A DNA stretch of 32,000 bases from Candidatus Nitrosopumilus koreensis AR1 (GCF_000299365.1 NC_018655.1:1470001-1502000); one strand, 5' to 3'; counted from the stretch's first letter, positions 11,739 through 26,258 are shown. Notes: generated by a model not told the origin, from the sequence alone. Numbers and translations: made by a program.

Positions 11739-13004
11739 CTAAATTATAATTATTTTCCTTTCAACAAGATTTTCAATTATATTTAGAAATTGTTCATCAG
11801 AAATTTTTTCTTCATACCACCAACTTGCAGGAGTTTGTACCCATGCAGGGATTCTCCATTGTGATTCAGAAACTATCTCACGTGTTGGAACAGATACAAT
11901 CTGTTTCTTAAGGAGGAAATCAATTCCTTCAAGAAATTCTGAATCAGAAATTTGTTCAGTTGCCCACCAATCTGCATTTTGTTTTATCCATGCAGGAATT
12001 GTAGGTAGTTCTGGAGGCAATCCTTCATCAAAACCAGAAATTTTCAAAATACCTTGAGATTGCGGTCCAACTGTAAATGCAACATGCCAGAACCCCATCT
12101 CATCTATGCTTTGAATAAATTCTATAGGCTCATCATCAATAGTAATAGAAAATTTTTCATTTCCTGAAATTGGAGCAAATTCAAAATTAGCATATGTATC
12201 TAATGGATAACTATTGTAGCCTTTGATAGTCATTGTTGTACCAGACTCATCAAATTTTGCAGCTGAATACCATGCTCCTGAGTCATATCTAAAATCAAAA
12301 TCACCATCATTTTTCTTTACAGTTACAGGAATTACAGTAGTATCAACTGGCGCAAAGCAAGAGTAGAAACGTACTGGTTCAGAGACAGATGGATCTGGAT
12401 AGATAGTAAAATCTAGAATCTGTCCTGGTTCAATTTTTTCAATTGGCTCAATATTGTGGGCAACATCTAAGATAAACTTCTCATAACCATGAACAATAGC
12501 ATACACTTTTGGATTGTATACTGTATGATTTCCAACATTCTCAATTTTTCCAGTAACATGTCCATCATCATGAGTGATCAAAGTTTTGTCATAGATAATT
12601 TGAATTGGAATACGATCTTTTTCAGTTTTAGTGTAACTTAGTTCTGCATCTAACAATTCAGGATTTTCACCACGTATATCGGGGAATTTTATTTTAAAAG
12701 GAATGTCAGTCATTGCAGGGATTGGCACATGAACAAGTTCTTTAGTAATTTTTGTTGCATCATCAATAACAGAAATTGTGATGGTTGGAATCAACGCAAA
12801 ATCATTTTGGTTTTTGACATTTCCAACAACAGTAAAAATGCCTTGATAATCATAGTAACCAGTGTATTCATTTGTTGGAATAAAGACATCAGCAAATGCT
12901 ATCTGCGGAACAAGAAATATGGATAAAATGATTCCAAATAGAAGAGTTTTGTATGATATCTTAGAATGAATTGATGATATCTTCAAATCACGCGTTGTTT
13001 TCAT
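11739..13004 (-). CDS. Secreted protein of unknown function with two C-terminal Trp-rich repeats
   Basis: Signal peptide ...LVPQIAFA|DVF. There are two internal beta-sandwich-like segments (FTVVGNVKNQNDF / VTGKIENVGNHTVYN). The C-terminal tandem repeat IPAW(I/V)...WW...(I)SD..F is shared with the next two genes. The tracked TTG start at 13025 is replaced by the ATG at 13004. Confidence 0.6.
   Translation of the reverse strand: MKTTRDLKISSIHSKISYKTLLFGIILSIFLVPQIAFADVFIPTNEYTGYYDYQGIFTVVGNVKNQNDFALIPTITISVIDDATKITKELVHVPIPAMTDIPFKIKFPDIRGENPELLDAELSYTKTEKDRIPIQIIYDKTLITHDDGHVTGKIENVGNHTVYNPKVYAIVHGYEKFILDVAHNIEPIEKIEPGQILDFTIYPDPSVSEPVRFYSCFAPVDTTVIPVTVKKNDGDFDFRYDSGAWYSAAKFDESGTTMTIKGYNSYPLDTYANFEFAPISGNEKFSITIDDEPIEFIQSIDEMGFWHVAFTVGPQSQGILKISGFDEGLPPELPTIPAWIKQNADWWATEQISDSEFLEGIDFLLKKQIVSVPTREIVSESQWRIPAWVQTPASWWYEEKISDEQFLNIIENLVERKIIII
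11742..11999 (-). repeat. Coding tandem repeat (2 copies, about 49-aa period): IPAWIKQNADWWATEQISDSEFLEGIDFLLKKQIV / IPAWVQTPASWWYEEKISDEQFLNIIENLVERKII
   Basis: Direct comparison of the translated C-terminus. Confidence 0.85.
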
Positions 13005-13088
13005 AGTGCTTTTAGGCCTAAACAAAGTAGTGTAATTTTCTTAATTATTCATTTAAACCGACTGGTTCGATTATCAAATCAGTGTAGA

Positions 13089-14738
13089 TTAAACACGAAT
13101 TATTCCTTTTTGAATCAAAAATTCCAATCCTTGTACGAATGTTTGATTGTCTATATGTCCTGCAGCCCACCATGCAGCATTGTTTCTAATCCAAGATGGT
13201 ATCTCTTGAGACTCTGAAGTTTCCTGTTGAGTTGGAGGAAGTATAATAATTTGATTTTTGATTAGATATTCTATTCCTTGTACGAATGTACTATCATCAA
13301 TTTGTTCTTCAGACCACCACAATGCATTGTTTCTAATCCAATCAGGAATTATAATTTCTTTTTGTGGTGTAACTCTATCAATAACAATCGGGATAGTTGT
13401 TTGTGCAAGCTCATTATTATTAAGATTATTAAAATTAAGATGCGCAATTCCTGTTACATCTTGTGGAATAAAAAATTCAACTACATTGTGTTCTTCTCTT
13501 GAATCAGTACTAATTCCATTTTGTTCAAAAATTATTCTGTTATTTTGTGTAATAGAAAATTCATAATTGGTTGAAACAGGTTTGTTTTTTAAGAAGACAT
13601 CAGTTACATCAAAAATTATTTTTGCATTTGAATTAGATTTTAGATATTCTGGTTCCCAAGATACAAGAATTCTGAATTGCCCATTTTCAGTAACTGAGCT
13701 CAAATGAGGGTAATCCTTATCAGGTTTAATTACAAAATTCATCCCATTTGCATTTGAGCCATTTTCAAGAATGTTGAGTAATTCTTTTTGATAAATAATA
13801 AAATGGACTATACGGCCGTCAGAAAAAAAATCATCTATTGTGATTACATCTTCAGAAAGTTGCACTCCATTAATGAACATAGTAAATCCAGATACAAGCA
13901 AGTCACCAAATGTTTTTGGAATAACTAGTTCTTCATGTACAACAGATGTTTGATTGATGTTTGTATAACTCCAGTCAAAAGGCATTGAATATCTAATCTC
14001 TTTTGAATCAGAATCATATTCAAAGTCAGAAATCTCATCATAATAAGTAACGACATGAATATTCTGATCTCCAAAGTTAGGATCAACAAAATCATGTCTA
14101 GAGGTCTGAGCAATAGAAATTCCTGCGTTAAAAACTAGTGGTTCTTCAAGTGTATTGGAATAACTGTCAACAGTAAGTACACTAATATCAAATTTGTATA
14201 ATCCTCCTTCGCTGAGCTTTGGACCCTTTACATGAATCATCCTACTATCCAATCCTAATAACGAACCAAAGATACTGCTTTCACTTTCTTCCTCTACAAT
14301 AATAGAATCTGTTTCTTCTGAAACAAAGTTAAAGACTAAAAATCCATTATCAGCTTTGAATTCTTGTTCAAAAAGAAACTGTTCTCCCTTTTCAGATGTT
14401 ATATGAAAAATAACGTCACGTAAAGTAATTTTAGAATCAAAATCAATTAACGAAATCGATATTTGTTGTCCATCAATTGCTTCAGGATCACCTTTTGATG
14501 AAGAAACTTCCAGAGCCACTTGCTTTCCGTTCAATTCGACTGGAGGAAATGTTTCGCTTCCTACCCCATGACCATGAACGTCAGTAAATGAAACTAAAAA
14601 CAAAGAAGAGATTAGAAGTAATACAAATAACGATGGAGATTTCAATCTATGTCCACTTGTTTGGATCTTTTTTACGAATTTCTTTTCCATCAATTGTAAC
14701 TGAATCTTTTTCTTCAAAGATAGTATGCCATTTGCCAT
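13089..14738 (-). CDS. Secreted HG(L/V)G-N-terminus family protein, paralogue 1, with two C-terminal Trp-rich repeats
   Basis: Homologous to 14886-16589 and 24873-26240 through shared blocks GGLYKF, YYDEISDFEYD, MPFDW, VVHEELVIPKTF, INGVQL and IVHFIIY. The signal peptide ends FTDVHG|HGVG. The start is ambiguous: ATG at 14738 or 14690, or TTG at 14645, which gives a paralogue-like 25-aa signal peptide. Confidence 0.7.
   Translation of the reverse strand: MANGILSLKKKIQLQLMEKKFVKKIQTSGHRLKSPSLFVLLLISSLFLVSFTDVHGHGVGSETFPPVELNGKQVALEVSSSKGDPEAIDGQQISISLIDFDSKITLRDVIFHITSEKGEQFLFEQEFKADNGFLVFNFVSEETDSIIVEEESESSIFGSLLGLDSRMIHVKGPKLSEGGLYKFDISVLTVDSYSNTLEEPLVFNAGISIAQTSRHDFVDPNFGDQNIHVVTYYDEISDFEYDSDSKEIRYSMPFDWSYTNINQTSVVHEELVIPKTFGDLLVSGFTMFINGVQLSEDVITIDDFFSDGRIVHFIIYQKELLNILENGSNANGMNFVIKPDKDYPHLSSVTENGQFRILVSWEPEYLKSNSNAKIIFDVTDVFLKNKPVSTNYEFSITQNNRIIFEQNGISTDSREEHNVVEFFIPQDVTGIAHLNFNNLNNNELAQTTIPIVIDRVTPQKEIIIPDWIRNNALWWSEEQIDDSTFVQGIEYLIKNQIIILPPTQQETSESQEIPSWIRNNAAWWAAGHIDNQTFVQGLEFLIQKGIIRV
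13092..13349 (-). repeat. Coding tandem repeat (2 copies): IPDWIRNNALWWSEEQIDDSTFVQGIEYLIKNQII / IPSWIRNNAAWWAAGHIDNQTFVQGLEFLIQKGII
   Basis: Direct comparison of the translated C-terminus. Confidence 0.85.
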
Positions 14739-14885: not shown

Positions 14886-16589
14886 TTATGATTGAATTCT
14901 CATGATTCCTTCTTTAATCAAGAATTGAATTCCTTGAATGAAAGAGCTATCATCAATTGCACCTTCTGCCCACCAACCTGCATTGTTTTTAATCCATGCT
15001 GGGATTTCATTAGAACCAGAACCTTGGCCTTGTGATGTTGGTGGAATCTTTAGAATATCTTCTTTAATCAAATATTGAATGCCCTGAACAAAGGAATTGT
15101 CATCTATTTGTCCATCAGCCCACCAACCTGCATTGTTTTTAATCCATGCAGGTATTGCAGCAGGAGGTTGTACATCAGGAGTTTTTCCTACACTAGGACC
15201 AATCTCAATTATTCCTGAACCAATTCCTGCATAAGTTTCATCATATGCTAATCCAGTACCTAAAGCTCTTACATCAATTCTGTAAGTTCCTTGAGATGGA
15301 ATGTAGATTTTTTGAACATCAATTCCTTCAGAAGCTATAATTCCAGGCATATCAGGATTATCTCCCAAGAATGTCTCTAAGATCTTATCATTTTCATCAA
15401 TAAAAGAAACAACATATCTCATATCACGAATGAGATCTCTGTTTTCATCAAAGAATGCTATTTCAAAAGGTACATCATCTCCGGCACCGTAATTTCCATC
15501 CCATGAAATATTCACAGTTGTTGGAACCTGTTCATAGTTTGTGGTGTCAACAAGATAGAATTCAGTAGAACTCTTTGAAACTTCATCAAGTGGCACTAGT
15601 TTCAAGTTCATTTCTGTGTTATCATAGTGACTTGGTCCCAATGTTTCATTGATTTTCTGCAATTCAGCTTTGGTAATTAAAAAGTGAACAATATTGGTAT
15701 CATCATATGAATAAGGATCATTTAGTAATGCACGTTGGTCAATTTCTACACCATTGACATATCCCTTGAACTGTTTACCTTCAGCGTAAGGTGCAAAGGT
15801 TTTTGGAACTCTAACTTCTTCATGAACTACTTGAACTAAATTAACATAATCAGGATTCCAATCAAATGGCATATGAAATGAAATTGAGTTATCTGATTGA
15901 TCAAACTTGAAATTATCTACATGATCATAGTATGTTTTTATAACAACTGGCACTTCAGCGTTTGCGGTTTGTATCAGAAAGTTTTGATCTTGTGCAACAC
16001 TAACATAAGTTTCATAGCTTAGAAGATTTGCTAATACAGTTCTAGGACTAGTTGCACCTTCAATATCAACTCTAATCTTATACAATCCACCATTTACAAA
16101 AATAGGACCAGTCATTGATGGTCGTGCACAAATATCTAAGTTATCATCAGTACATTCTGCGCCTTGAACAAATAATGCACCGGGAGCACTAACATGTTCA
16201 GAACCACCATAAACAGTACATTCTTCAGGTTTAGGTTCATCACAGTTAGGATTTGGCTTAATTTTTACATCCAGTCTTCCATCCAAATCATAGAAAAGAT
16301 TTCTAGCTAAAAGTTCGCCACTTTGCCATACTTCTATTCTATATGTTACTTTATCGAGATTTGTGTCAGTTAAGGTATCAAAGAATCGTACTTGCATGTT
16401 AGCTGAATCAACTTCACCTACTGTAATATCTGATGGACTCAATTGTGTACGTACTGTTACTTCCATATCACCAAAACTCAATGCTGGAGCTTGATCACCT
16501 CCTAATCCATGTCCAAACACATCAGGAACTAATGTCGGTATTGTGAAAATCCCAACAATTACAATTAGTAATGCAAACTTATGATACAA
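14886..16589 (-). CDS. Secreted HG(L/V)G-N-terminus family protein, paralogue 2, with two C-terminal Trp-rich repeats
   Basis: 567 aa. TTG start, with no in-frame ATG before the signal peptide. The signal peptide ends PDVFG|HGLG. Family blocks: [47 protein letters not shown]. Confidence 0.75.
14889..15155 (-). repeat. Coding tandem repeat (2 copies, exact 150-nt period): [35 protein letters not shown] / [35 protein letters not shown]
   Basis: It contains a perfect 32-nt DNA repeat (14968-14999 = 15118-15149, gcccaccaacctgcattgtttttaatccatgc). Confidence 0.95.
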
Positions 16590-16701: not shown

Positions 16702-17526
16702 ATGAAAGTTATATTTGCGTTATTACTAATACCATTTTTGTTAACAGTTCCAGCTTTTGCTGAAACCCAAACATTACCAACTGAAAAGAATACTTTGGAT
16801 GTAAAATTAACATATGATGAAATTGAACCAGGTGTTCAAACAAAGATTGGTATAGATTTTATCAATCCACAAACTCAAAAAATTCAAGAACATATTGATT
16901 ATACGGTAGCTGTATCAAAAGATGGTGAAAATGTATTTGGACCAATTCCACTTACACACACATCTGTGGGATCTGTAAAAATTCCAATAGAGTTTAATCT
17001 TGGAGAAGGAATATACTCGATGGACTTTGAGATTGAAGGTATTTTATTTCAACCAATTCCAAAAGAATCGGTATCTTTTGACATTCTAGTAGGTGAAGCC
17101 AATGCACAACCAATTACACCAATAGAGAATGAAAAACTAGATGGTGAAAATGGAGGATGTCTTATTGCAACAGCAACATTTGGCTCTGAGATGGCACCAC
17201 AAGTACAACAACTAAGAGAACTTAGAGACAATACAATTCTAAAAACAAATTCAGGAATGGCATTCATGACAGTTTTTAATCAGTTCTATTATTCATTCTC
17301 ACCTGCTGTTGCAGACTTTGAAAGAGAGCAACCATTTTTCAAAGAAGTTATGAAAGTAACACTTACTCCAATGTTATCATCATTATCATTACTAAATCAT
17401 GTAGATATTGATTCAGAACAAGAAATGCTGGGATACGGTATCTCTGTAGTACTACTGAATCTTGGAATGTATATTGGAATTCCGGCATTTGGAATTCTAA
17501 GATTGTACCAGTTTAGAAAAAACTAG
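16702..17526 (+). CDS. Secreted protein: beta-sandwich module plus a GGCLIATATFGSE...LRELRDN C-terminal module with a hydrophobic tail
   Basis: 274 aa with signal peptide ...TVPAFA|ETQ. The N-terminal module resembles the C-terminal module of the paralogue family. The Cys-containing box CLIATATFGSEMAPQVQQLRELRDNTIL is followed by FNQFYYSFSPAVADF and a terminal TM segment. Confidence 0.55.
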   Translation: MKVIFALLLIPFLLTVPAFAETQTLPTEKNTLDVKLTYDEIEPGVQTKIGIDFINPQTQKIQEHIDYTVAVSKDGENVFGPIPLTHTSVGSVKIPIEFNLGEGIYSMDFEIEGILFQPIPKESVSFDILVGEANAQPITPIENEKLDGENGGCLIATATFGSEMAPQVQQLRELRDNTILKTNSGMAFMTVFNQFYYSFSPAVADFEREQPFFKEVMKVTLTPMLSSLSLLNHVDIDSEQEMLGYGISVVLLNLGMYIGIPAFGILRLYQFRKN

Positions 17527-17589: not shown

Positions 17590-18453
17590 ATGAAGACTAT
17601 AGCAATTTGCTCTTTCTTCGTACTATTTGCTATGGTAGCTGGATTAGTTGCAACAACACCAGCTGCTTTTGCAGATCATTCAGAAGTCACAATCTCACCA
17701 GCATCAGGTTCTGGTGCACCAGGTTGTGAAGAAACCGCAGATGGATGTTACATTCCAAATACTGCAACAGTTGATGTTGGCGGTGTTGTTATCATGTCAA
17801 ACACTGACACTGCAGCACACACATTCACATCAGGAACTCCAGATGATGGGCCAGATGGTGTATTTGACACCAGTCTATTAATGGCTGGAAATTCATTTGA
17901 GTGGAGTCCAACAGTTGCAGGTGAACAGCCATATTTCTGTATGGTACATCCTTGGATGCAAGGCTTGATCATAGTACAAGAAGCAGGAGCTGAAGAAGCT
18001 GATGATCATGGTGATGAGATGATGATGCCAACAGGTGCCGCTGCAGCAACAGGAATGTTGTCTGACGGTACAAAAGTTTCTGTCTGGACTACAACACCTA
18101 CTAAAGGTGAGATGATGGAAATTTCTGTTCAATTTGAAGGTGCAGAACATGTCAATCACGATATGAAAGTCACACAAAATGGTAATACAGTACTAGATGA
18201 TAAGGGCGCACATCATCATGATGGAAAAGGAGTACATATGACAAAAGCTCTTGGTTCATCTGATCCAGTAAACATCACAATTACCTTCCAAGGTTATGGT
18301 GTTGATGATCCTAAAACAGGACCAATTGGTGAAAAAGTAGTATTCTCAAACGTTGTTCCAGAATTTGGTACAATTGCAATGATGATACTAGCTGTTGCAA
18401 TTATAAGCATTGTTGCAGTTACTGCAAAATCTAGAGTCATTCCAAGATTTTAG
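17590..18453 (+). CDS. Blue (type 1) copper protein (cupredoxin) with Met/His-rich linker, second His-rich domain and PEFG-CTERM tail
   Basis: Signal peptide ...PAAFA|DHSE. Type 1 Cu ligand pattern: AAHTFTSG ... YFCMVHPWMQG (C-x2-H-x2-M, amicyanin-like loop). Linker: EEADDHGDEMMMP. Second domain contains HVNHDMKV and GAHHHDGKGVHM. C-terminus: PEFGTIAMMILAVAIISIVAVTAKSR. Confidence 0.85.
   Translation: MKTIAICSFFVLFAMVAGLVATTPAAFADHSEVTISPASGSGAPGCEETADGCYIPNTATVDVGGVVIMSNTDTAAHTFTSGTPDDGPDGVFDTSLLMAGNSFEWSPTVAGEQPYFCMVHPWMQGLIIVQEAGAEEADDHGDEMMMPTGAAAATGMLSDGTKVSVWTTTPTKGEMMEISVQFEGAEHVNHDMKVTQNGNTVLDDKGAHHHDGKGVHMTKALGSSDPVNITITFQGYGVDDPKTGPIGEKVVFSNVVPEFGTIAMMILAVAIISIVAVTAKSRVIPRF
18358..18450 (+). 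other. PEFG-CTERM-type sorting/anchor segment of the cupredoxin
   Basis: PEFG motif, hydrophobic helix and a basic cluster (KSR) at the extreme C-terminus. Confidence 0.7.
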
Positions 18454-18466
18454 GAATCCTCTTTTT

Positions 18467-19105
18467 CTATTTTCTTTTTATTAAAGCAATTATCGCCAAG
18501 ATTATAGCTGCTCCGGCAATTGATAATCCAAATATTGCAAAGTCATAAGCTGTTCCACCATCAGATGTTACTTCAGTTTCACCTGACTTTAGTTTAGAAA
18601 CATCTTGTTGTAATGATGAAATTGCATTCTTTAGAGCAGCAACATCAGCAGCACCTTCACTGCTAGTAGGTGGGAAATCTAACACTGCGGTAGGCTCTAC
18701 ATCCTCAATAGGGATTTTAATATCAATAGGAGTTCCACGAATTTCTCCTTTTAGTTCCACCATGTATGTTCCTGTTTTAGTTGGAATTATAGGTGAAAAA
18801 TAATATCCAGGTTTAGGATCAGAATTTATATCAATTTTCTTTGTTGCACCACCAAACATCACAGTTGCATCAACATCTTTGAAAGCACTTGTGATTCCTG
18901 TAAATGTACCTTCTTTTTCTCCACGTTCAATCACTTTTAGAATCAGATCATTTCTAATGCCTACAACTGGAGGCTCGATCCCCCATCCTGCTTCAATTTC
19001 GTATGGTTCGACATGAACAGTTGTATGTGCAAATGATGGTGCAATCATTCCAATTGAAAACAATAAACCAATAATACCAAAAACTAGTATTTTCATTGTT
19101 ATCAT
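18467..19105 (-). CDS. Membrane-anchored secreted protein, YcnI/DUF1775-like (tentative), predicted N-terminal His
   Basis: Signal peptide ...IAPSFA|HTTVHVEPYEIEAGW, comparable to the H-x-x-V-x-V-x-P start of mature YcnI-type proteins. It has a beta-rich body and a C-terminal TM helix plus KRK. The tracked TTG start at 19153 is replaced by the ATG at 19105, with another ATG at 19096. It is divergent from the CopC-CopD gene. Confidence 0.45.
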   Translation of the reverse strand: MITMKILVFGIIGLLFSIGMIAPSFAHTTVHVEPYEIEAGWGIEPPVVGIRNDLILKVIERGEKEGTFTGITSAFKDVDATVMFGGATKKIDINSDPKPGYYFSPIIPTKTGTYMVELKGEIRGTPIDIKIPIEDVEPTAVLDFPPTSSEGAADVAALKNAISSLQQDVSKLKSGETEVTSDGGTAYDFAIFGLSIAGAAIILAIIALIKRK

Positions 19106-19198
19106 TTCATAATTACACGTTATTATCTTTACGTGAATTGGCACAAATATCAAATTTGTGAAAACTGTTTAAATTATCAAAGATGATCCTAAGAGTAA

Positions 19199-21982
19199 AT
19201 GCAAAAATTTCTCATCACGTTATTGGTAATATCATTTATTTCAATTCCATTTGCAACAGCACACCCATTTACTGAAGAGACAATTCCAAGTTTGACGTCT
19301 AATGCCCCATCTGGAACAACTGAAGTGATTGTATATTTTTCAGAACCAGTTGATATTAACTTTAGTGAACTCAAAGTATTTGATACAAATGGAGATCAAA
19401 TAGACAATAAAGATACAGATTACTATGAAGGGGAATTATCTCTAATAATTACAACACCACCATTAGAAGATGGAGTTTACACTGTATCAACCAAAGTTCT
19501 CTCTAAAGTAGATGGCCATCTAGTTCCAGATGCATTCTTGTTTGCAGTAGGAGATGCTGTTATTGATCCCTCTTTACATAATGTAGAACGACCATCAGAG
19601 ACAGTATTTCTGCCTGAAGCTGGTGCCAGATTACCAGGATTGGTAGGTCAAACGATTGTTTTAGGTGCAGTGATTTCATCACTCATAATTTGGGGTACAC
19701 AAAATAAACAATCGATAAAAGATGAACTAGAAAAGATTCAATCTTTTCATCACGGAAAATTTATGTCAATTACAGGAATTGGACTTGTTTTAGTTTTCAT
19801 TTCAGATATTTTGATGATTGCAGTTCAAACAGTTAGATTAGAAGCATCGCCGATTGATGCAATCCAAACTGATTTTGGCAATATTTGGTTAATCAGAATG
19901 ACCATAACAATAGTATTACTAGGCATATGGTTTGGGTTAGACAGAAAAAAAGTACTATCAAGGAAAAATCAAATTGCAATGTTAGTAGTATCGCTTGTAT
20001 TAATTGCCACAACAAGTCTAATTGGACATGGTGCAGCTAGTGGAGAAACACCTGCATTAGTATTAGATTACATTCACAATTTGGTTGCAGCAGTTTGGAT
20101 AGGTGGAATTTTCTATTTTGTTTTCACATTGCTTCCAACATTTTCACAATTAAAAGAATCATCTAGAGAAAAGATGAGCCTATTAATGATTCCAAGATTC
20201 TCAATTGCATTTATCATTGCAGTAGGAATCGTTATAATTACAGGACCAACATTGATGTGGTTCCTAGAAAGTGATATTGGATTAATTACAGAATCAATTT
20301 ACGGTCAATTAATTATTCTAAAAATTGCCATTGCAGTAGTAATAGTTGCATTTGGAGGATTTTTCCAGTTCAAAGTACAAAAAAATGCAGAAAGAAATTT
20401 TTCATCAGGAAAAATTTTTGTACATAAAAAACTAAAGAGATCACTCAAAGTTGATGCCGTATTGGGAATAATACTTCTTGGAGTGGTAGCATTACTAACT
20501 AACGGAACATTACCTGCAGGAGAAATCCAAAAAGTTGATGCTCAAGAAATTATCTATGGTTTCAAAACGATAGAATTTACAGAGAACGCAAAATTTGATA
20601 TCGATATTTCGCCATTTTCAAGCGGACCAAACACAATCCTAATCAAGGTTAGTGACTTTGAAGGAAATCCACTCTATGATTCAGATCAACTCAAAGTCAA
20701 AATATCAAATCCATCAAAGAATATCGCACCAATTGAAGTGCCAATGGAGATAATCAAACAAGAAGAGAACAAACCAATAGAATTCCAAGGAGAATTAACA
20801 TTTGGATTTTCAGGAGAATGGCTAGTAGAAGTTGAAGCACAAAGAACCGATAATGCAAGCGAGTCAAAGCTTTTGAATTTACTAGTAAAGCCAAGACTGA
20901 CAGACATACAAACTCAGATTATCGAATATGAACTACCAGAGGACGCAAAACCGCTCTTTCCATTGTATGATGGGCATGATTCGATTTGGGTAAGTGATGC
21001 ATCAGCGCCACGAGTATGGCAATTTTCACTGGATTCACAAGAGTTTACACCATATTCATTTGATGGTGTAGTTACAACATTCCTTACGCAGGACAAACAA
21101 GATAGAATTTGGTTTGTGGATCCACCAAGGAATCAGATTGGATTCATAGATCTTCAAACAAAACAGATCACAACAAAATCTATTCCAAAACTTGATCCTA
21201 CAATCTCAGACAATACACCATTGTTCATAAAATCAGACTTTGATGGAAACATATGGATTACAATAATCAACAAAGACAGAATTGTAAAATACATACCAGG
21301 AAATGACGAATTTGAAGAAATTGTTTTGTCAGGAAAAGATAACTTACCGTTTGCATTAGCTCTTGATAATGATGGAAAAGTATGGTTTTCAGCAACAGGT
21401 ACAGGAAAAATAGGATACGTTGATCCAAAAGACAATAAATTGATTGAATTTACAAAAGAGCCTCCACTACAAGGACCAGAGGCATTGCTTTTTGATGATG
21501 ATGGTAATCTCTGGATTGCAGAACATACAGGCTTGGCAATCACCAAATTCAATCCAATTTTAGAAACATTTGAGAGAGTATCAGTCCCAAATGAAGAGGC
21601 ACTACCATTTGGAATGACATTTGACAGATACGGAAATGTTTGGTTTGCACAGCACACGATAGATAGCATAGGTGCATATGATCCAGATAACAATAATTTG
21701 ATTGAGGTTCCTATTCCATCAGAAACATCATTTGTGCAGTTTATGACATCAGATGGAGACAATAACGTATGGTTTGTTGAACAACAGACAAACAAAATTG
21801 GAACAGTAAAGATTACTGAGATTCCCGGTATTACATCGCAAGTTCAATCATCTGCCGAATTTGAATTAAAGTATACAGAACTTGCATCACCACTAATTGC
21901 GTTAGGAATCATTGCAACGTCTTTGTTTTATGTAAAAAGTATTCAGGATAAAAGAAGATTAAATTCACTAATCAGGTCTTAG
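19199..21982 (+). CDS. CopC-CopD fusion protein extended by a YtkA/FixH-like beta-sandwich, a six- to seven-bladed beta-propeller and a terminal TM helix
   Basis: 927 aa. Signal peptide ...IPFATA|HPFTEE. CopC module (about nt 19262-19573) with His1 and VDGH. Polytopic CopD module (about 19616-20520, including IGHGAASGE). Beta-sandwich at about 20546-20900. Repeated blades at about 20920-21820 (DRIWFVD, DGNIWIT, DGKVWFS, DGNLWIAE, YGNVWFAQ, DNNVWFVE), of the Vgb/SMP-30 type. Terminal TM helix plus KRR. Confidence 0.8.
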   Translation: MQKFLITLLVISFISIPFATAHPFTEETIPSLTSNAPSGTTEVIVYFSEPVDINFSELKVFDTNGDQIDNKDTDYYEGELSLIITTPPLEDGVYTVSTKVLSKVDGHLVPDAFLFAVGDAVIDPSLHNVERPSETVFLPEAGARLPGLVGQTIVLGAVISSLIIWGTQNKQSIKDELEKIQSFHHGKFMSITGIGLVLVFISDILMIAVQTVRLEASPIDAIQTDFGNIWLIRMTITIVLLGIWFGLDRKKVLSRKNQIAMLVVSLVLIATTSLIGHGAASGETPALVLDYIHNLVAAVWIGGIFYFVFTLLPTFSQLKESSREKMSLLMIPRFSIAFIIAVGIVIITGPTLMWFLESDIGLITESIYGQLIILKIAIAVVIVAFGGFFQFKVQKNAERNFSSGKIFVHKKLKRSLKVDAVLGIILLGVVALLTNGTLPAGEIQKVDAQEIIYGFKTIEFTENAKFDIDISPFSSGPNTILIKVSDFEGNPLYDSDQLKVKISNPSKNIAPIEVPMEIIKQEENKPIEFQGELTFGFSGEWLVEVEAQRTDNASESKLLNLLVKPRLTDIQTQIIEYELPEDAKPLFPLYDGHDSIWVSDASAPRVWQFSLDSQEFTPYSFDGVVTTFLTQDKQDRIWFVDPPRNQIGFIDLQTKQITTKSIPKLDPTISDNTPLFIKSDFDGNIWITIINKDRIVKYIPGNDEFEEIVLSGKDNLPFALALDNDGKVWFSATGTGKIGYVDPKDNKLIEFTKEPPLQGPEALLFDDDGNLWIAEHTGLAITKFNPILETFERVSVPNEEALPFGMTFDRYGNVWFAQHTIDSIGAYDPDNNNLIEVPIPSETSFVQFMTSDGDNNVWFVEQQTNKIGTVKITEIPGITSQVQSSAEFELKYTELASPLIALGIIATSLFYVKSIQDKRRLNSLIRS

Positions 21983-22790
21983 AAAGCAATCCAGATGATT
22001 TAATTCCCATAGTACCAGCTAGCAATCCAATTGCAATCAAGACAATTGTTCCTGCAGGAGTAATATCAAAGATATAAGAAACCAAAATTCCCGTTACAAC
22101 TGAAAAAATTGAAAAACTCATAGAAATAATTGCAGTTTGTTTGAAACCTTTACCATACATTATTGCTGAAACATTCGGAATAACAAACAATGCAGAAATC
22201 AACAGTACCCCAACAAGCTGAATCGAGGTGACAACTGTAAGGCCTGCCATAAACACTATTAGATAATTTATCTTCTCTACAGGGATTCCACTGACTTTGG
22301 CTTGCTCTTCATTAAATGTAGAATAAAGAATCTGTCTAAACAAGACCAATATCACAATCAGAATTGCGCCAGTAAGTGCAAGTATCAAAACAGTATCATC
22401 AACACTGACTAGTAGAATGCTACCAAAGAGGAAACTAAAGATATCAATTGTAAACCCTCCTGAAAACCCAATAATTACAAGCCCAACTGCTATGCCGGAG
22501 GACAAAAGTACTGCAATGGATGCATCTCCAGATATGTTGAATCTGTCTTTTACTCTAGTAATGATCAATGCACTAATTATTGATACACCATAAGCAGTCC
22601 ATAATGGATAAACTCCTACTAAAAGACCCAAAGCTATTCCACCAAAAGACGAATGTGCTATTGCATCACCAAACAATGAATACCGTCTAAGAACCAAAAA
22701 CAATCCAACAACTGAACAAAGAATTGCAATGGCAATCCCAGAGATTAATGCTCTGTGCATAAAACTGTAAGTTAGAATTTCAAAAGACAT
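21972..22790 (-). CDS. Metal ABC transporter permease (ABC-3/ZnuB-TroCD family)
   Basis: 272 aa, polytopic, in an operon with the ATPase and the cluster-A-I-type binding protein. The 3' end overlaps the convergent CopCD gene by 11 nt. Confidence 0.8.
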   Translation of the reverse strand: MSFEILTYSFMHRALISGIAIAILCSVVGLFLVLRRYSLFGDAIAHSSFGGIALGLLVGVYPLWTAYGVSIISALIITRVKDRFNISGDASIAVLLSSGIAVGLVIIGFSGGFTIDIFSFLFGSILLVSVDDTVLILALTGAILIVILVLFRQILYSTFNEEQAKVSGIPVEKINYLIVFMAGLTVVTSIQLVGVLLISALFVIPNVSAIMYGKGFKQTAIISMSFSIFSVVTGILVSYIFDITPAGTIVLIAIGLLAGTMGIKSSGLLSKT

Positions 22791-22792
22791 GA

Positions 22793-23515
22793 CTAATGAT
22801 GATGCATATGCTCCTGCATCGATGCTTCAGAGTATTGTTTGACAAGATCATCATCAGAAAAGAATTTTTCAGATTCTCCATGAAAGAACAAAGTTCTATT
22901 TAGACAAGCAACATGATTTGCTAATTTGTTTACAGCATCCAAGTCATGAGAAGACCAGATAATCGTAATCTTTTGTTTAGAGTTTAGTTCACGTAAAATA
23001 CTGTAGAACAGTTCTATGCTTTGCTGATCAATTCCAGTTACTGGTTCATCTAAAATCAAAAGTTTAGGATTATTCACCAAGGCTTTTGCAATAAAAACTC
23101 GTTGTAGTTGTCCTCCAGATAGTTCTCCTATTCTTCTATTTTGTAGTTCATGTATCCATAATTGCTGTAAAATTTCATTGATCTTGTTTTCATCAGATTC
23201 TTTTCGTAATCCCATCCTTACAACATCACCTACAGTTGCAGGAAAATTTTTTTCAAAAATTGGTTTTTGTGGAACATATCCAATTTCTTTAAGATAATTT
23301 CTTGATTGTCTAATGTCTTCTCCAAAAAACTTGATTTGGCCTTTGTATGTTGTATTGAGTCCAAGCATGCAATCAAAGAGAGTTGACTTTCCAGCACCAT
23401 TAGGCCCAATTATGCCTAGAAAATCACCCTGATTAACCACAAAACTCACATCATCAAGAGCTTTTACATCAGGATATCGAACAGTGAGATTGTTAATTTC
23501 AACTGCCTTCAACAT
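22793..23515 (-). CDS. Metal ABC transporter ATP-binding protein (ZnuC/TroB-like) with C-terminal His-rich tail
   Basis: Walker A GPNGAGKST, signature LSGGQLQR, Walker B LLILDEP. The C-terminus ends MQEHMHHH. Confidence 0.85.
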   Translation of the reverse strand: MLKAVEINNLTVRYPDVKALDDVSFVVNQGDFLGIIGPNGAGKSTLFDCMLGLNTTYKGQIKFFGEDIRQSRNYLKEIGYVPQKPIFEKNFPATVGDVVRMGLRKESDENKINEILQQLWIHELQNRRIGELSGGQLQRVFIAKALVNNPKLLILDEPVTGIDQQSIELFYSILRELNSKQKITIIWSSHDLDAVNKLANHVACLNRTLFFHGESEKFFSDDDLVKQYSEASMQEHMHHH

Positions 23516-24417
23516 AGTGCCTCCTTTAGGTTCTCAAGATTTTGGTTCATTTTTTCAATGTAGGTTCCATCAGATGCAATCTCTAATGAGGATAAAACCA
23601 AAACTTTGCCGTCAATTTCATGCGCAATGGTTTGAGAAGTTCTAGCATCAACTGTTTCTTTGCTAAAAATTATTTTGATATTAAGTTCTTTTGCAGTTGT
23701 AATTACACTCTCTAGCTTTTTTGCAGTGGCTTCTCCATGTGAATCAGTCGAAGAGATGATTGTGTGTTGATGTAAGCCATACTCATCAGCAAAATATGAA
23801 AAGGCATCATGAAATGCAATAAAATCAGAATTACAATTTGACAAATCATTTCGAATTTGTGAGTCCAATAAGTTGAGTTCTTCAATGTATGATTCAGCAT
23901 TGGATTGATAAAATTGCACGTTTTGAGGATCATGTTTTGAAAATGCATCTGCAATGTTTTGAACTTGAATTTTTGCATATACAGGATTTAACCATATATG
24001 CGGATCTCCTGATTCATGATCATATTCATCTTCTTGAGATTTTTTTGCTAAAATTCCATCGCTTGTATCAATTATAGTTCCCTGATAGTTATTATCATCA
24101 AGTTTATCGACCCAATTTTCAAAACCAATTCCATTAATAATTATAAGATCAGATGCTTGCATTTTTTGCACATCTTTAATTGTTGGTTCCCAATCATGAG
24201 GTTCAACTCCAACTGGAACAAGTAATGTGACATCAACTTTGTCTTGTCCTACATTTTGTGCAAATTCATGCAACGGATTAAATGATGATATGACTTGCAG
24301 TTTTGAATTTTCTGGAGAAGTAGATTCGGTGTTTGGATTTGTTCCATAAACTGCAAGTGAGCTTAATGGAATTACTACAGATATTACAATTATTGCAAGT
24401 TTGGTTTGTATATTCAC
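23509..24417 (-). CDS. Metal ABC transporter substrate-binding protein (ZnuA/TroA family)
   Basis: 302 aa with a GTG start and an N-terminal anchor/signal. Ligand contexts: VEPHDWEPT, GDPHIWLNP, AFHDAFSYF, KETVDAR. This is a three-His plus Asp pattern, of the Zn/TroA type rather than the Mn type with Glu. There is a short acidic/His loop, EDEYDHESGDPH. Confidence 0.8.
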   Translation of the reverse strand: MNIQTKLAIIVISVVIPLSSLAVYGTNPNTESTSPENSKLQVISSFNPLHEFAQNVGQDKVDVTLLVPVGVEPHDWEPTIKDVQKMQASDLIIINGIGFENWVDKLDDNNYQGTIIDTSDGILAKKSQEDEYDHESGDPHIWLNPVYAKIQVQNIADAFSKHDPQNVQFYQSNAESYIEELNLLDSQIRNDLSNCNSDFIAFHDAFSYFADEYGLHQHTIISSTDSHGEATAKKLESVITTAKELNIKIIFSKETVDARTSQTIAHEIDGKVLVLSSLEIASDGTYIEKMNQNLENLKEALC

Positions 24418-24458
24418 GCAACCGTTAATTAAAATTTTATTAATAAATCTATAAAATC

Positions 24459-24471
24459 TTAATAATATTAA
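24459..24471. promoter_or_regulatory. Perfect 6-1-6 inverted repeat TTAATA-A-TATTAA in the divergent transporter/NikR-like intergenic region (candidate operator)
   Basis: Read directly from the sequence. The region is extremely AT-rich, so a chance palindrome is plausible. Confidence 0.25.
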
Positions 24472-24508
24472 TTGCTAAACTTATAAGATAATTAATAACA
24501 TTAGGCAT

Positions 24509-24892
24509 ATGCCAATAGTATCAATCTCACTAAATGATGAGATTCTATCTGAGTTAGACAAATTGCAATCAAGCATGGGTTTCTCAGGAAGATCTGAGGC
24601 AATCAGGGCAGGAATCAGGGCATTTGTTTCAGAAGAAAAACAAAAGTCAGATTTATCAGGTAATATTCATGCAATTCTTTTGGTGGTACACAATGATGAG
24701 TTTGATCATGTTGTGTCAGGGATAACTCATAACTTTGAAGATCTAATAACTACACATCTTCACAGTAAAATTGACAAAGAAAAATGCATGGAACTTTTTG
24801 TAATTGATGGAGATGCAGAAAAGGTTTCTACAATGACAAAAGACTTTCAGATAAACAAAAACATGGATACTGTTAGACTTGTTGCAATCTAA
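24509..24892 (+). CDS. nikR: NikR-family metal-responsive ribbon-helix-helix regulator
   Basis: 127 aa. N-terminal RHH (VSISLNDEILSELDKL...GRSEAIRAGIRAFV). C-terminal metal-binding-domain pattern VVHNDEFDH ... THLHSKIDKEKCMELF (H-x-H...C), similar to NikR high-affinity site residues. Confidence 0.75.
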   Translation: MPIVSISLNDEILSELDKLQSSMGFSGRSEAIRAGIRAFVSEEKQKSDLSGNIHAILLVVHNDEFDHVVSGITHNFEDLITTHLHSKIDKEKCMELFVIDGDAEKVSTMTKDFQINKNMDTVRLVAI

Positions 24893-26240
24893 ATGAATTT
24901 TTTCTGGTAATAAAAATTACAGATGCAATAGAAATTATCAATACAAATAATGCAATTGTGCCAAATTCAGGTGCAACTACCATACCAAATTCAGTTTCTT
25001 GTCCAGTATTTCGTATATTTTCAAATTTAATTATTGTAGGGCCTGTTTGATCTTCTGCAAATGTATATTTTTCAAATTCTCCACCAACTTGGGCTACACC
25101 AGACACGCGATGTATCTCCTCTCCATTTTGAATGATTACAAATGTATAATCAGAATTTCTCAATGGATCATTTGTTCTTCCGTCTCGGATAGTAAAAATA
25201 AAATTTGTTTCAACACCAGGTTCAAGATCCGCAGGATCCCATGACAGATTTACTTTAAAGTCCTCACTTTTTGTGTATGCCTCTAATGGAAAAGCAGTTT
25301 TATCGCTAGTCAATAAAGTAAATACAATATTATCAGGCAATTGTTCATCTGATTTTTTCATTTCATTTTTTATATATCGGATGTGATCCTGCAGCAAAAC
25401 AAAATGCACTATTCTTTCATGATCTTCTGTATAATCATCAATTGATACTGAAGATTTGAATAATTCAATTCCATTTACATACCCAGAATAGCTAGGGGAC
25501 AAAAGTTCAACAAAATCTTTTGGGAAATGAACTTCTACATGAATTACTGAAATGTGAGACATCTTACTTTCTTTCCAGTCAAATGGCATCTCAAATCTTA
25601 CTTGTTTTGCACTAGGATCATACTGGAAATTGTCAATTTTATCAAAATATGATTTCATTCTAAATTGAACGTCATTGCCCTCAAGATCTTTTTCCATAAA
25701 AGACGATGTGCTAACTACACTCAAATCTGCATTGTAGATGCCAGAATCCTCTATAATGTTGGTAGGCTCATCAATTGTTCTAACTTCAATCTCAAAATTA
25801 TACAGACCACCTGAAGAAAATAATGGTCCAGTTATCTCAATTGGATCTGACACAGTTCCATGCCAAGCCCCAAGCAGAGAGTCTTGCTCACCATGTATTG
25901 TTATCTCACCTTCATTTGATGGATTCACCTTGATTGACAAAACTCCATTTTCTGCAAAAAAGTAATTTCTAAAAATCATTTCATTGCTATGAAACAATCC
26001 AATGAGAAATGTCACGTTTTTTGCAGGTTCGTCTGTTTCATTATCAGTTGCAGTTATTGTGATTTGTTCTTGACCACCTTCAAATGTCAATGGCATCTCT
26101 ACTGAAATTGAAATGTCTTTTCCAGCAACATTTACTGAAGATATGGTATCAATTCCCAACCCATGTCCGTAAACACTGCTAACAGGAAATAGCAAGCATG
26201 CAGATAATGCCAATATTGAAAATTTTGTAAATGACATCAT
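24873..26240 (-). CDS. Secreted HG(L/V)G-N-terminus family protein, paralogue 3, with PEFG-CTERM tail instead of Trp-rich repeats
   Basis: The signal peptide ends VSSVYG|HGLG. Family blocks: GGLYNF, YFDKIDNFQYD, MPFDW, VIHVEVHFPKDF, VNGIEL, IVHFVLL. C-terminus: PEFGTIALFVLIISIASVIFITRKN. The tracked TTG at 26243 is followed immediately by two ATGs, so I use 26240. Confidence 0.75.
   Translation of the reverse strand: MMSFTKFSILALSACLLFPVSSVYGHGLGIDTISSVNVAGKDISISVEMPLTFEGGQEQITITATDNETDEPAKNVTFLIGLFHSNEMIFRNYFFAENGVLSIKVNPSNEGEITIHGEQDSLLGAWHGTVSDPIEITGPLFSSGGLYNFEIEVRTIDEPTNIIEDSGIYNADLSVVSTSSFMEKDLEGNDVQFRMKSYFDKIDNFQYDPSAKQVRFEMPFDWKESKMSHISVIHVEVHFPKDFVELLSPSYSGYVNGIELFKSSVSIDDYTEDHERIVHFVLLQDHIRYIKNEMKKSDEQLPDNIVFTLLTSDKTAFPLEAYTKSEDFKVNLSWDPADLEPGVETNFIFTIRDGRTNDPLRNSDYTFVIIQNGEEIHRVSGVAQVGGEFEKYTFAEDQTGPTIIKFENIRNTGQETEFGMVVAPEFGTIALFVLIISIASVIFITRKNSFRLQQV
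24876..24971 (-). other. PEFG-CTERM-type sorting/anchor segment of paralogue 3
   Basis: PEFG motif, hydrophobic helix and a basic cluster (TRKN). Confidence 0.7.
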
Positions 26241-26258
26241 CAAATTTTTATCCCAGGG

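Follow-up and report, generated by a model that had tools for sequence, protein, structure and literature searches.

Described copper systems and the AR1 locus

YcnJ, a copper importer of Bacillus subtilis, has a CopC-CopD-YtkA architecture (PMC8424229, PMC12362106) and exchanges Cu(II) with YcnI (PMC12362106, PMC13344008). YcnJ requires His1 of its CopC domain and a His of CopD (PMC12362106, PMC13344008), and its YtkA domain overlaps functionally with CtaK in CuA assembly (PMC13344008). Among the hallmarks of N-terminal-His copper sites is a His exposed as mature residue 1 (PMC8424229, PMC10952591). In Thaumarchaeota, the CopC/D fusions described by Reyes et al. (2020) belong to the same protein family as the protein analysed here and are conserved across the phylum (PMC7785015). 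[quoted passage not shown] The latter behaviour agrees poorly with a plain function in high-affinity uptake. The same study proposes that CopC/D is linked to the assembly of complex IV (PMC7785015). The comparison with NVIE_014300, NVIE_014310 and NVIE_1457 draws on this account. The searchable text and supplements mention neither the YtkA, propeller and ninth-TM modules nor a YcnI-like partner (PMC7785015). The AR1 locus pairs a YcnJ-type protein that has an extra propeller and ninth TM helix with a small partner that shows no detectable homology to YcnI.

The window is a 32,000-nucleotide stretch of Candidatus Nitrosopumilus koreensis AR1 (NC_018655.1:1470001-1502000). A sequence-only reading had placed two divergent genes in it, and ORFs were found at both places, one of 927 aa (19199-21982, plus strand) and one of 228 aa from a TTG (18467-19153, minus strand). 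The start of the smaller gene is most likely the ATG at 19096 and not the TTG, which shortens the protein to 209 aa (MKIL...) and gives a divergent spacer of 102 nt (Table 1). The small protein, which is annotated as "hypothetical", has Nmar_1651 as its orthologue in N. maritimus, where the orthologue of the large gene adjoins Nmar_1651. Genes for a type-1 cupredoxin, ZnuABC and NikR lie nearby, forming a metal island around the pair.

The first three modules of the large protein follow the order and the topology of YcnJ, with CopC outside, an eight-TM CopD, and YtkA outside. Both proteins have a C0-1 CopC (His1, Asp, and His, with the Met site absent) and a conserved CopD His, and both genes adjoin a gene for a small membrane-tethered protein with an N-terminal His. 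Different from YcnJ, the archaeal protein adds a seven-bladed propeller of about 300 aa and a ninth TM helix, the locus lacks a YcnK-type repressor, and the two genes are divergent rather than in an operon. On balance, we lean slightly towards a copper acquisition and trafficking module of ammonia-oxidising archaea, in which a YcnJ-like protein would take up or traffic Cu(II) and the small protein would be an analogue, not a homologue, of YcnI.

Table 1. Positions of genes, domains, residues and spacer elements in the window
Feature	Position	Strand	Basis or remark
Fusion gene (CopC-CopD-YtkA-propeller-TM, 927 aa)	19199..21982	+	ORF, Pfam, NCBIfam
Fusion signal peptide, aa 1-21, ...IPFATA/H	19199..19261	+	hydropathy
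CopC domain, aa 22-125	19262..19573	+	PF04234
Predicted CopC Cu(II)-site residues H22; D105; H107	19262-19264; 19511-19513; 19517-19519	+	
CopD membrane domain, 8 TM helices, aa 147-434	19637..20500	+	Pfam, NCBIfam, hydropathy, K/R alternation
YtkA/FixH-like beta-sandwich, aa 452-566, predicted extracytoplasmic	20552..20896	+	PF13115 in orthologues
Seven-bladed Vgb_lyase-family propeller, aa 575-880, predicted extracytoplasmic	20921..21838	+	PF24684
Invariant propeller histidines H776; H819	21524-21526; 21653-21655	+	
Ninth, C-terminal TM helix	21878..21934	+	hydropathy
Basic cytoplasmic tail KSIQDKRRLNSLIRS after TM9	21935-21979	+	
Small partner gene, 209 aa from ATG at 19096	18467..19096	-	mechanical ORF reaches TTG at 19153
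Small-protein signal peptide (MKILVFGIIGLLFSIGMIAPSFA/H)	19028..19096	-	hydropathy; PSFA/H junction invariant
Ectodomain, aa 24-142, nine-strand beta-sandwich	18671..19027	-	AF2 model
His24 (mature residue 1); W38; E41	19025-19027; 18983-18985; 18974-18976	-	
Conserved stalk helix GAADVAALKNAISSLQQDVSKLK	18587..18655	-	helix 148-170 in first model
C-terminal TM anchor, aa 184-206, then KRK	18479..18547	-	hydropathy
Putative divergent promoter region, 102 nt	19097..19198		spacer conservation
Putative TATA-like TTTAAAT for fusion gene	19168-19174		within divergent spacer
Putative promoter element TTATTAT for small gene	19120-19126	read on other strand	
Central conserved spacer element TTGGCACAAAT	19138-19148		family consensus TTGGTACAAAT

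Modules and topology of the fusion protein

The fusion is composed of a signal peptide, CopC, an eight-TM CopD, a YtkA-like sandwich, a seven-bladed Vgb-family propeller, and a ninth TM helix, in that order. The Pfam calls for CopC (PF04234, aa 22-117, E 6e-10), CopD (PF05425, aa 331-433, E 6e-14), and Vgb_lyase (PF24684, E 3e-46) all pass the gathering cut-offs, and the NCBIfam CopD model spans aa 154-434 (E 9e-26), under its strict equivalog cut-off. YtkA is sub-threshold in the window copy (E 0.024; 15.7-19.1 bits versus a cut-off of 25.9), and PF13115 matches 15 of the 20 orthologous YtkA segments with a best E of 4.7e-8. The module order proposed from the sequence is borne out by these matches. 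The description as a four-module extension goes too far, since CopC-CopD-YtkA is already the known architecture of YcnJ (PMC8424229, PMC12362106) and the propeller and the last TM helix are the only extra parts. A frameshift or assembly artefact is ruled out by the protein in NCBI that is 100% identical (copper resistance D domain-containing protein, Ca. N. koreensis AR1) and by full-length orthologues, which occur in more than 120 clusters, in 160 loci, and, among clusters at 50% identity, in about 35-40 representatives.

Conservation was inspected in 30 divergent fusions with 24-64% identity. The mature His1 (ATA/HPF) and the VDGH motif, both named in the sequence-only reading, are present in the CopC domain, and H22, D105, and H107 are invariant across the set. 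Cleavage is predicted before H22 because the site obeys the -3/-1 Ala rule and H22 is invariant. The domain has no Met and is therefore of the C0-1 type. In CopD, the residues H277, D290, H293, and W300 are invariant. In the mechanism that we propose, signal-peptide cleavage would expose His22 as residue 1, His22 would form the single Cu(II) site of a C0-1 CopC together with Asp105 and His107, and copper would pass from there to the His/Asp site of CopD (H277, D290, and H293) for translocation or hand-over.

Hydropathy and the positive-inside rule place the YtkA domain and the propeller outside the cell, in agreement with the earlier prediction for the propeller. K/R counts are 4, 5, 3, and 8 in the cytoplasmic loops and 1, 0, and 0 in the outside ones, and the tail is basic. 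The number of TM helices before YtkA is even, hence the YtkA domain is predicted to be outside. The propeller is flanked by TM8 and TM9 and lies on the outside face, which is poor in K/R, and the C-terminal segment is kept in many orthologues. The chain would thus exit TM8 outside, run through the YtkA-like sandwich into the propeller, and be pinned back to the membrane by TM9.

The seven-bladed propeller

The propeller belongs to the same Pfam family as Vgb, a seven-bladed propeller (PDB 2Z2N), and 2z2n is also its best PDB sequence match (E 1e-29). Unlike Vgb, an enzyme that is soluble and cytoplasmic, the AR1 propeller is predicted to lie outside the cytoplasm with a TM helix on either side. 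Blade stacking gives seven anchors, namely W597, W638, W686, W729, W772, W815, and W858. The earlier estimate of six to seven blades thus settles at seven, its list of six blades having missed blade 1 (HDSIWVSD). Most blades have an acidic residue at W+3, on the same face as the metal site of Vgb, and H776 and H819 are invariant across the 30 fusions.

We then compared the active-site positions, using Vgb residue positions checked against the 2z2n sequence and a blade-for-blade register. The Mg2+-binding and catalytic residues of Vgb, which we take to be H228, E268, H270, and E284, are largely replaced in the register across the 30 fusions. Specifically, H228 corresponds to F804, E268 to F845, and H270 to Q847; the position of H228 is Phe in 20 fusions, Tyr in five, and Asn in three, Q847 occurs in 29 of 30, and the position of E284 corresponds to Q862/E861. 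These replacements argue against a propeller that acts as a lyase, lactonase, or hydrolase and frees Cu for CopC by destroying extracellular organic copper chelators, as does the fact that many equally good matches are designed or sensor propellers, which are non-enzymatic. Such an activity appears improbable to us, although the Vgb_lyase and SGL fold families include metal-dependent lyases and lactonases, and the two invariant histidines and the W+3 acidic residues on the metal-site face would suit it. As the catalytic residues are lost while the acidic ring and the two invariant His are kept, the propeller is likely a binding platform and not a lyase. Most likely, it would serve outside the cell to bind a metal, a ligand, or a partner protein.

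Propellers commonly serve to dock proteins. This is one of several points that make it possible, if doubtful, that the main task of the fusion is metalation, assembly, or copper buffering rather than import, with the YtkA domain and the propeller docking its clients. Extracytoplasmic cuproenzymes, e.g. plastocyanin-like proteins, multicopper oxidases, AMO, and the aa3 oxidase, would be such clients. A type-1 cupredoxin gene adjoins the pair both in the window and in the orthologous locus L164, and Copper-bind genes lie a few genes away in two others, L165 and L167. Further points are the overlap of the YcnJ YtkA domain with CtaK in CuA assembly (PMC13344008), and the proposed complex IV link together with the down-regulation in N. 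maritimus, as given in the searchable text of Reyes et al. (PMC7785015). Against it, the CopD His/Asp residues needed for the function of YcnJ/YebZ are invariant, which speaks for use of the membrane pathway. An assembly role and copper import are compatible with each other.

The small partner protein and its pairing with the fusion

The divergent neighbour is, as had been proposed, an exoprotein anchored in the membrane, and its mature N-terminal His is conserved. The junction SFA/H[TEKN][TSDE] occurs in every extracted orthologue and in one paralogue, and cleavage there is predicted from sequence rules. All 135 aligned orthologues have the mature His1, as does the paralogue, which is TM-less; the second His of the mature end HTTVHVEP varies (H/E/Y/N/Q/S/D), so of its two histidines only the first is a conserved feature. 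W38 and E41 belong to a GW..EPP motif that is invariant in the 135 orthologues. Orthologues with no more than about 40-50% identity over their aligned regions still have the stalk helix.

Sequence and profile searches detected no similarity of the small protein to any characterised copper protein, and none of the 120 relatives listed has a precomputed Pfam domain. The AF2 model of the ectodomain (pLDDT 78, pTM 0.70) has CrdA, FetP, a PCuAC-like chaperone, and CopC among its best, though weak, Foldseek matches. All matches have E>1e-3 and TM of about 0.5, a level that filamin/Ig domains reach as well. CrdA, FetP/P19, PCuAC, and CopC are Ig-like or cupredoxin-like extracytoplasmic Cu binders and the nearest structural neighbours at TM 0.41-0.59, but identity is 13-19% and their ligand motifs are not in common with the small protein.

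YcnI (7ME6/7MEK), a DUF1775 Cu(II) chaperone, resembles the small protein in its layout, with a signal peptide, a mature N-terminal His, an all-beta ectodomain, a C-terminal TM anchor, and a gene paired with a CopC-CopD-YtkA gene. The label "YcnI-like" in the sense of DUF1775 finds no support, as no sequence, profile, or top-ranking fold similarity was found. A lack of DUF1775 profile similarity is also the outcome that the sequence-only reading had named as refuting it. PF07987 has no match in the window protein at E<=1 or in 18 diverse orthologues (51-83% identity) at E<=10. Among PDB sequences searched with the family profile at E<=10, 7me6, 7mek, 8um6, and 3esm were not found; hhalign against 7me6 and 3esm gave a probability of 0.1% with the wrong regions aligned; and YcnI is not in the best 50 Foldseek matches of the ectodomain model. 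The mono-histidine-brace partners of YcnI, Glu at about +23 in VPSE and a conserved Trp at about +110, have no counterpart at this spacing in the small protein, where mature +23 is Ile/Arg, the sole Trp is at +14 (W38), and the invariant E41 is at +17. The small protein may possibly use a different ligand set. The archaeal protein also has the conserved stalk helix as an extra element. It appears very improbable that the small protein is a true, extremely diverged DUF1775/YcnI member and the pair homologous to ycnI-ycnJ. What speaks for such a descent, besides the matching layout and neighbouring gene, is that the N-termini look alike by eye (HVSVKP..AGSW..KVPSE in YcnI, HTTVHVEP..AGW..LKVIE here) and that a nearly invariant Glu34 could stand in for Glu50; no Trp, however, is found where the conserved Trp137 of YcnI sits. 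With no detectable homology, the relation to ycnI-ycnJ is best viewed as a functional analogy. The small protein would bind Cu(II) through the amine and imidazole of its N-terminal His, with the invariant GW..EPP residues nearby, and would exchange copper with the CopC domain as YcnI does for YcnJ in Bacillus, by means of a different domain.

The small partner is stably paired with the fusion, which it flanks in 152 of the 160 close loci. It is also adjacent in all four intermediate loci (L164, L165, L167, and L168), whose fusions are 43-50% identical; in one of these, orientation and spacing have changed and adjacency is kept. Gene order in Nitrosopumilaceae is generally highly conserved, which weakens adjacency as evidence, and in neither of the two distinct Nitrosocaldaceae-type loci does the partner lie beside the fusion, so the fusion can function in its absence. 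These observations, along with the filamin/Ig domains among the best fold and profile matches and the synteny of nearly all neighbouring genes across Nitrosopumilaceae, would fit a generic Ig-like surface or pseudo-periplasmic protein (e.g. S-layer-associated or adhesion) that is unrelated to copper and adjacent by frozen gene order. We consider this unlikely, because adjacency outlasts changed neighbours and orientation in the four intermediate loci, His1 is invariant in 135 of 135 orthologues and the TM-less paralogue, and both genes share a compact, highly conserved divergent spacer. The spacer is 100-103 nt long in 144 of 152 loci and strongly conserved in sequence, and its elements would act as promoters for the two genes. 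Elsewhere in the window, the central element shows no enrichment.

The fusion was found in Nitrosopumilaceae, Nitrososphaerales (or Nitrososphaera), and Nitrosocaldaceae. The architecture, which had been called unusual, is so relative to bacteria, but in each of the named lineages of ammonia-oxidising archaea that were sampled, the propeller fusion is the standard form.

Domain architecture of the fusion and its propeller

The large ORF that the sequence-only reading had described as an extended CopC-CopD protein lies where that reading had placed it, and its 927-aa product (the fusion) is 100% identical to the NCBI protein of Ca. N. koreensis AR1. Three Pfam families pass their curated cut-offs: CopC at residues 22–117 (E 6e-10), CopD at residues 331–433 (E 6e-14), and Vgb_lyase with E 3e-46. 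An NCBIfam CopD match spans residues 154–434. The YtkA match at residues 465–545 is weak in the window copy (E 0.024). As 15 of the 20 orthologous segments of divergent fusions match YtkA (best E 4.7e-8), the module assignment holds for the fusion family. Hydropathy reveals a signal peptide, eight TM helices within residues 147–434, and a further TM helix at 894–912. The cytoplasmic loops contain four, five, three, and eight Lys/Arg residues, the outside loops one, zero, and zero, and the C-terminal tail five. From this clean alternation, the CopC domain, the YtkA-like domain and the propeller (435–893) are predicted to be extracellular. The fusion is YcnJ-like, with its propeller predicted to lie outside the cell, as had been proposed. 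The four modules are real, but CopC-CopD-YtkA is the published architecture of Bacillus subtilis YcnJ (PMC8424229, PMC12362106), so only the propeller and the ninth TM helix are additions to that layout.

We inspected an alignment of 30 fusions (24–64% identity). The CopC triad for Cu(II), composed of His22, Asp105, and His107, is invariant, and so are His277, Asp290, His293, and Trp300 of CopD and His776 and His819 of the propeller. The CopC domain contains no Met and is therefore of the single-site C0-1 type, as is the CopC domain of YcnJ (PMC12362106).

Stacking of the repeats on a conserved Trp (W597, W638, W686, W729, W772, W815, and W858) gives seven blades; the earlier list of six to seven had overlooked blade 1. 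The closest PDB sequence is virginiamycin B lyase (Vgb, 2z2n; E 1e-29), in which we take H228, E268, and H270 to be the Mg/catalytic residues and E284 in blade 7 to be a metal ligand. In a blade-for-blade register, H228 corresponds to F804, E268 to F845, and H270 to Q847 (29 of 30 sequences). His776 and His819 are located four residues after the Trp of blades 5 and 6, the position of E284 in blade 7 of Vgb, and the residue at W+3 is acidic in most blades. With the Vgb Mg/catalytic residues replaced and His776 and His819 kept, the propeller shares the fold family of Vgb without being a lyase of that type. The conserved His pair suggests a putative binding site. Our literature search found no paper treating a propeller on CopD; a large outward-facing propeller with its own invariant His residues, conserved throughout the fusions, is newly pointed out here.

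Clustering at 90% identity places the full-length orthologues in more than 120 clusters; they come from 80 species-representative genomes and 80 metagenome contigs, an abundance that rules out a frameshift or assembly artefact joining two genes. When metagenomes were scanned with the divergent alignment, all relatives obtained were at least 69% identical, and no distant context was gained. An exhaustive search recovered the CopC-CopD-(YtkA)-propeller architecture in about 35–40 representatives of 50%-identity clusters, down to ca. 27% identity. Besides Nitrosopumilaceae, the named carriers include Nitrososphaerales, Nitrososphaera, and Ca. Nitrosocaldaceae, so the architecture spans the three lineages of ammonia-oxidising archaea (AOA) with named members. 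The most distant propeller fusions share 24–30% identity. Automatic database labels read 'CopD family', 'virginiamycin B lyase family', or 'putative copper export protein/.../streptogramin lyase'. A CopC/D fusion has been reported as conserved phylum-wide in AOA (PMC7785015).

The divergent partner protein

The small divergent ORF exists as described, although the true start almost certainly lies downstream of its TTG. Judged by orthologues and the signal peptide, translation should begin at the ATG at 19096, giving 209 aa (MKILVFG...) rather than 228 aa and a divergent spacer of 102 nt. Its N. maritimus orthologue is Nmar_1651, and the annotation reads 'hypothetical'. No Pfam domain was found in any of the 120 relatives listed, and our literature search found no paper relevant to Nmar_1651 or Nmar_1652. 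The signal peptide (...PSFA/H, the slash marking cleavage) leads into an all-β ectodomain, after which come the conserved helix LKNAISSLQQDVSKLK and a C-terminal TM helix with KRK behind it. Among 135 anchored orthologues, the most distant of which are ca. 40–50% identical over the aligned regions, the invariant residues include the mature His1, Gly14, Trp15, Glu18, Pro19, and Pro20 (GW..EPP motif). Of the mature end HTTVHVEP noted earlier, His1 is thus invariant, while the second His varies.

In 77 of 80 genome loci, the small gene lies next to the fusion gene on its upstream side, in divergent orientation; the other three loci are truncated. Overall, the two genes adjoin in 152 of 160 loci. 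Because synteny in the family is generally high, more distant loci were also checked. In four loci whose fusions are just 43–50% identical to that of the window, and in which the genes downstream of the fusion are unlike those in the window, the partner keeps its place beside the fusion, in divergent orientation in L164, L167, and L168 and on the same strand with one ORF in between in L165. The partner is absent from both distinct Nitrosocaldaceae-type loci (L162, of which L163 is a second copy, and L166), where an 83-aa ORF lies upstream of the fusion and an Nramp gene downstream. Hence, the pairing is robust in Nitrosopumilales-range lineages but not universal for the fusion. The sequence of the Nitrososphaera locus (L161) begins 339 nt upstream of the fusion, within the last part of a gene for an unrelated helical protein.

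Further exported proteins occur downstream of the fusion in two loci. L164 encodes a TM-less secreted paralogue of the small protein (172 aa) that shares its mature H-K-S N-terminus and EVGW..EPP..G..N motif and has a Lys/Ser-rich insertion. The two exported proteins of L161 (172 and 178 aa), paralogous to each other, have beta-sandwich-like sequence, a C-terminal TM helix, and a KKK tail, the layout of the small protein in the window; their match to the small-protein HMM is marginal (E 0.0045 in a 15-sequence search space). One of them may have His after cleavage (ANG/HFFG), the other does not.

The sequence-only reading held that the pair mirrors ycnI-ycnJ of B. subtilis with a YcnI-like partner. 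Homology to YcnI did not withstand the searches. DUF1775, the YcnI family, gave no match at E≤10 in 18 diverse members, and the family profile found no solved DUF1775 protein among PDB sequences. The sequences of YcnI (7me6) and 3esm were fetched with a bait probe; hhalign of the family against them returned a probability of 0.1%. The Glu at +23 and the Trp at about +110 of YcnI have no counterparts in the small protein. An AF2 model of the whole protein, based on a shallow alignment (84–97% identity), reached only pLDDT 58 and was discarded; a usable ectodomain model built on an alignment of 59–91% identity has nine strands (pLDDT 78, pTM 0.70). Foldseek with this model against the PDB gave nothing at E≤1e-3. 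Its leading, weak matches were H. pylori CrdA (E 1.9e-3), filamin domains, FetP (TM 0.57–0.59), a PCuAC-like chaperone, and CopC, and YcnI chains were absent among the best 50. The small protein may be YcnI-like solely as a functional analogue, and the sequence-only interpretation of the pair is partly supported. We also asked whether the small protein could be the YtkA module of the fusion standing alone; the hhalign comparison was not significant (probability 5%, 21 columns).

Putative divergent promoter and a candidate copper pathway

The spacer between the two genes measures 100–103 nt in 144 of 152 loci and contains TATA-like boxes ca. 25–30 nt ahead of each start codon. Its central element, tested as TTGGYACAAAT, has a core that agrees at 9 of 11 positions with TTTGWACYANT, a stretch of the motif described for Cu limitation in N. 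viennensis (PMC7785015). The element is not enriched in the window (6 matches versus 2.9 expected; 5 of 100 shuffles reach 6), so no regulon is claimed.

AOA energy metabolism depends on copper enzymes, and copper is often limiting in nature. A YcnJ-like pathway for Cu(II) is the reading with the best support; domain identities, topology, conserved ligands, and pairing are shown here, and the copper function is assigned by analogy. In B. subtilis, YcnJ requires the CopC His1 and one CopD His, Cu(II) passes between YcnI and CopC (PMC12362106, PMC13344008), and the YtkA domain of YcnJ aids CuA assembly (PMC13344008). By this analogy, the small protein would bind Cu(II) via its N-terminal His and exchange copper with CopC; the propeller may serve as a binding platform. 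Cu limitation induces in N. viennensis two copC/D genes, the gene of an exported protein lying between them, and that of an ArsR regulator (log2FC 2.2–2.8), and the N. maritimus fusion is reported as down-regulated (PMC7785015). This down-regulation and the dispensability of the partner in Nitrosocaldaceae are caveats to the mechanism.

A bolder version, which we consider improbable, is that the partner founds a new, convergent AOA family of N-terminal-His Cu(II) chaperones and that the propeller is a receptor for organically complexed copper, or docks the neighbouring HGLG exoproteins, feeding CopC. If so, AOA could reach the strongly ligand-bound copper of seawater and soil. The locus encodes the one CopC/CopD system that all named AOA lineages in our sample have in common, to which Nitrosopumilales-range lineages add an unannotated partner with features typical of an N-terminal-His copper site. 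Should this partner bind copper, the YcnI solution would have arisen twice, independently. Partner residues His24, Trp38, and Glu41 and propeller residues His776 and His819 are concrete targets for the study of archaeal copper uptake.

Neighbouring genes

Features of the window and of compared loci (L161, Nitrososphaera; L162 and L166, Nitrosocaldaceae-type; L164, L165, L167, and L168, fusions 43–50% identical to that of the window)
Feature	Sequence	Position	Strand	Remark
Fusion gene	window	19199-21982	(+)	
Small partner ORF	window	18467-19153	(-)	
Central spacer element TTGGCACAAAT	window	19138-19148		family consensus TTGGTACAAAT; strongly conserved, between TATA-like boxes
HG[LV]G exoproteins	window	13089-14738, 14886-16589, 24873-26243	(-)	
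HG[LV]G exoproteins	L162; L165; L166	9256-10671, 10749-12173; 7629-8939; 4502-5764		
428-aa protein	window	11739-13025	(-)	
287-aa PEFG-CTERM protein	window	17590-18453	(+)	tail-to-tail with small gene
CFI-box-CTERM domain protein	window	16702-17526	(+)	NCBIfam NF041770, E 5e-21
ZnuB/ZnuC/ZnuA-type ABC metal transporter	window	21972-24892		convergent with fusion gene, 11-nt overlap at its end
Nramp-family divalent-metal transporter	L162; L166	7861-9090; 3120-4349		convergent, overlaps fusion 3' end
Small polytopic membrane proteins and ArsR/MarR-type HTH regulators	L161; L164; L167; L168	3313-3720, 3720-4232; 99-1001, 7751-8143; 4273-4656; 1-659, 6767-7150		
Secreted paralogue of small protein	L164	8284-8802		downstream of fusion
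Two paralogous exported proteins, 172 and 178 aa	L161	4259-4777, 4915-5451		downstream of fusion
721-aa protein	window	5162-7327	(-)	N-terminal winged-helix/HTH (DUF7347, HTH_20), ATP-cone, NRDD

The HG[LV]G exoproteins are a paralogous family of 436–567 aa without Pfam match. Their signal peptide stops directly ahead of HG[LV]G, which again predicts a His at the mature N-terminus, and their C-termini carry a PEFG-CTERM anchor or a repeated domain. An HG[LV]G protein occurs in 98 of 165 loci; the genes are near the fusion in Nitrosopumilaceae, and also in Nitrosocaldaceae, where the small partner is missing. They could be copper-related partners or clients. The 428-aa protein has in common with two HGLG proteins only a C-terminal 'WW...F..GI..L' domain (ca. 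42% identity over about 90 aa), possibly a module for anchoring or binding at the cell surface.

The 287-aa protein combines the signature of a type-1 copper site (YFCMVHPWM) with a second half rich in His (HHHDGKGVH), and is a plausible client cuproprotein. In 69 of 80 loci this cupredoxin gene is kept upstream of the pair; L164, L165, and L167 likewise have cupredoxin genes close to the pair. The CFI-box-CTERM protein begins with a secreted, beta-rich domain. It keeps its syntenic place in 60 of 80 loci and recurs in L165.

The Znu genes are followed by a NikR-type regulator (RHH and NikR_C); together with the copper genes they form a metal-homeostasis island. Two loci (L076 and L077) lack the Znu genes and retain the copper pair. 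The spot of ZnuB in the window is held by Nramp in Nitrosocaldaceae-type loci. Near the fusion, Nitrososphaera and the 43–50% identity lineages encode a family of small polytopic membrane proteins (127–135 aa, mutually 23–43% identical across loci), and an ArsR/MarR-type HTH regulator accompanies the fusion in L161, L164, and L168. This setting matches the Cu-induced NVIE_014280/014290 arrangement; the window has no homologue of the set. Farther away in the window, the 721-aa protein combines HTH, ATP-cone, and anaerobic ribonucleotide-reductase-like (NRDD) domains, an odd combination in an aerobic ammonia oxidiser.
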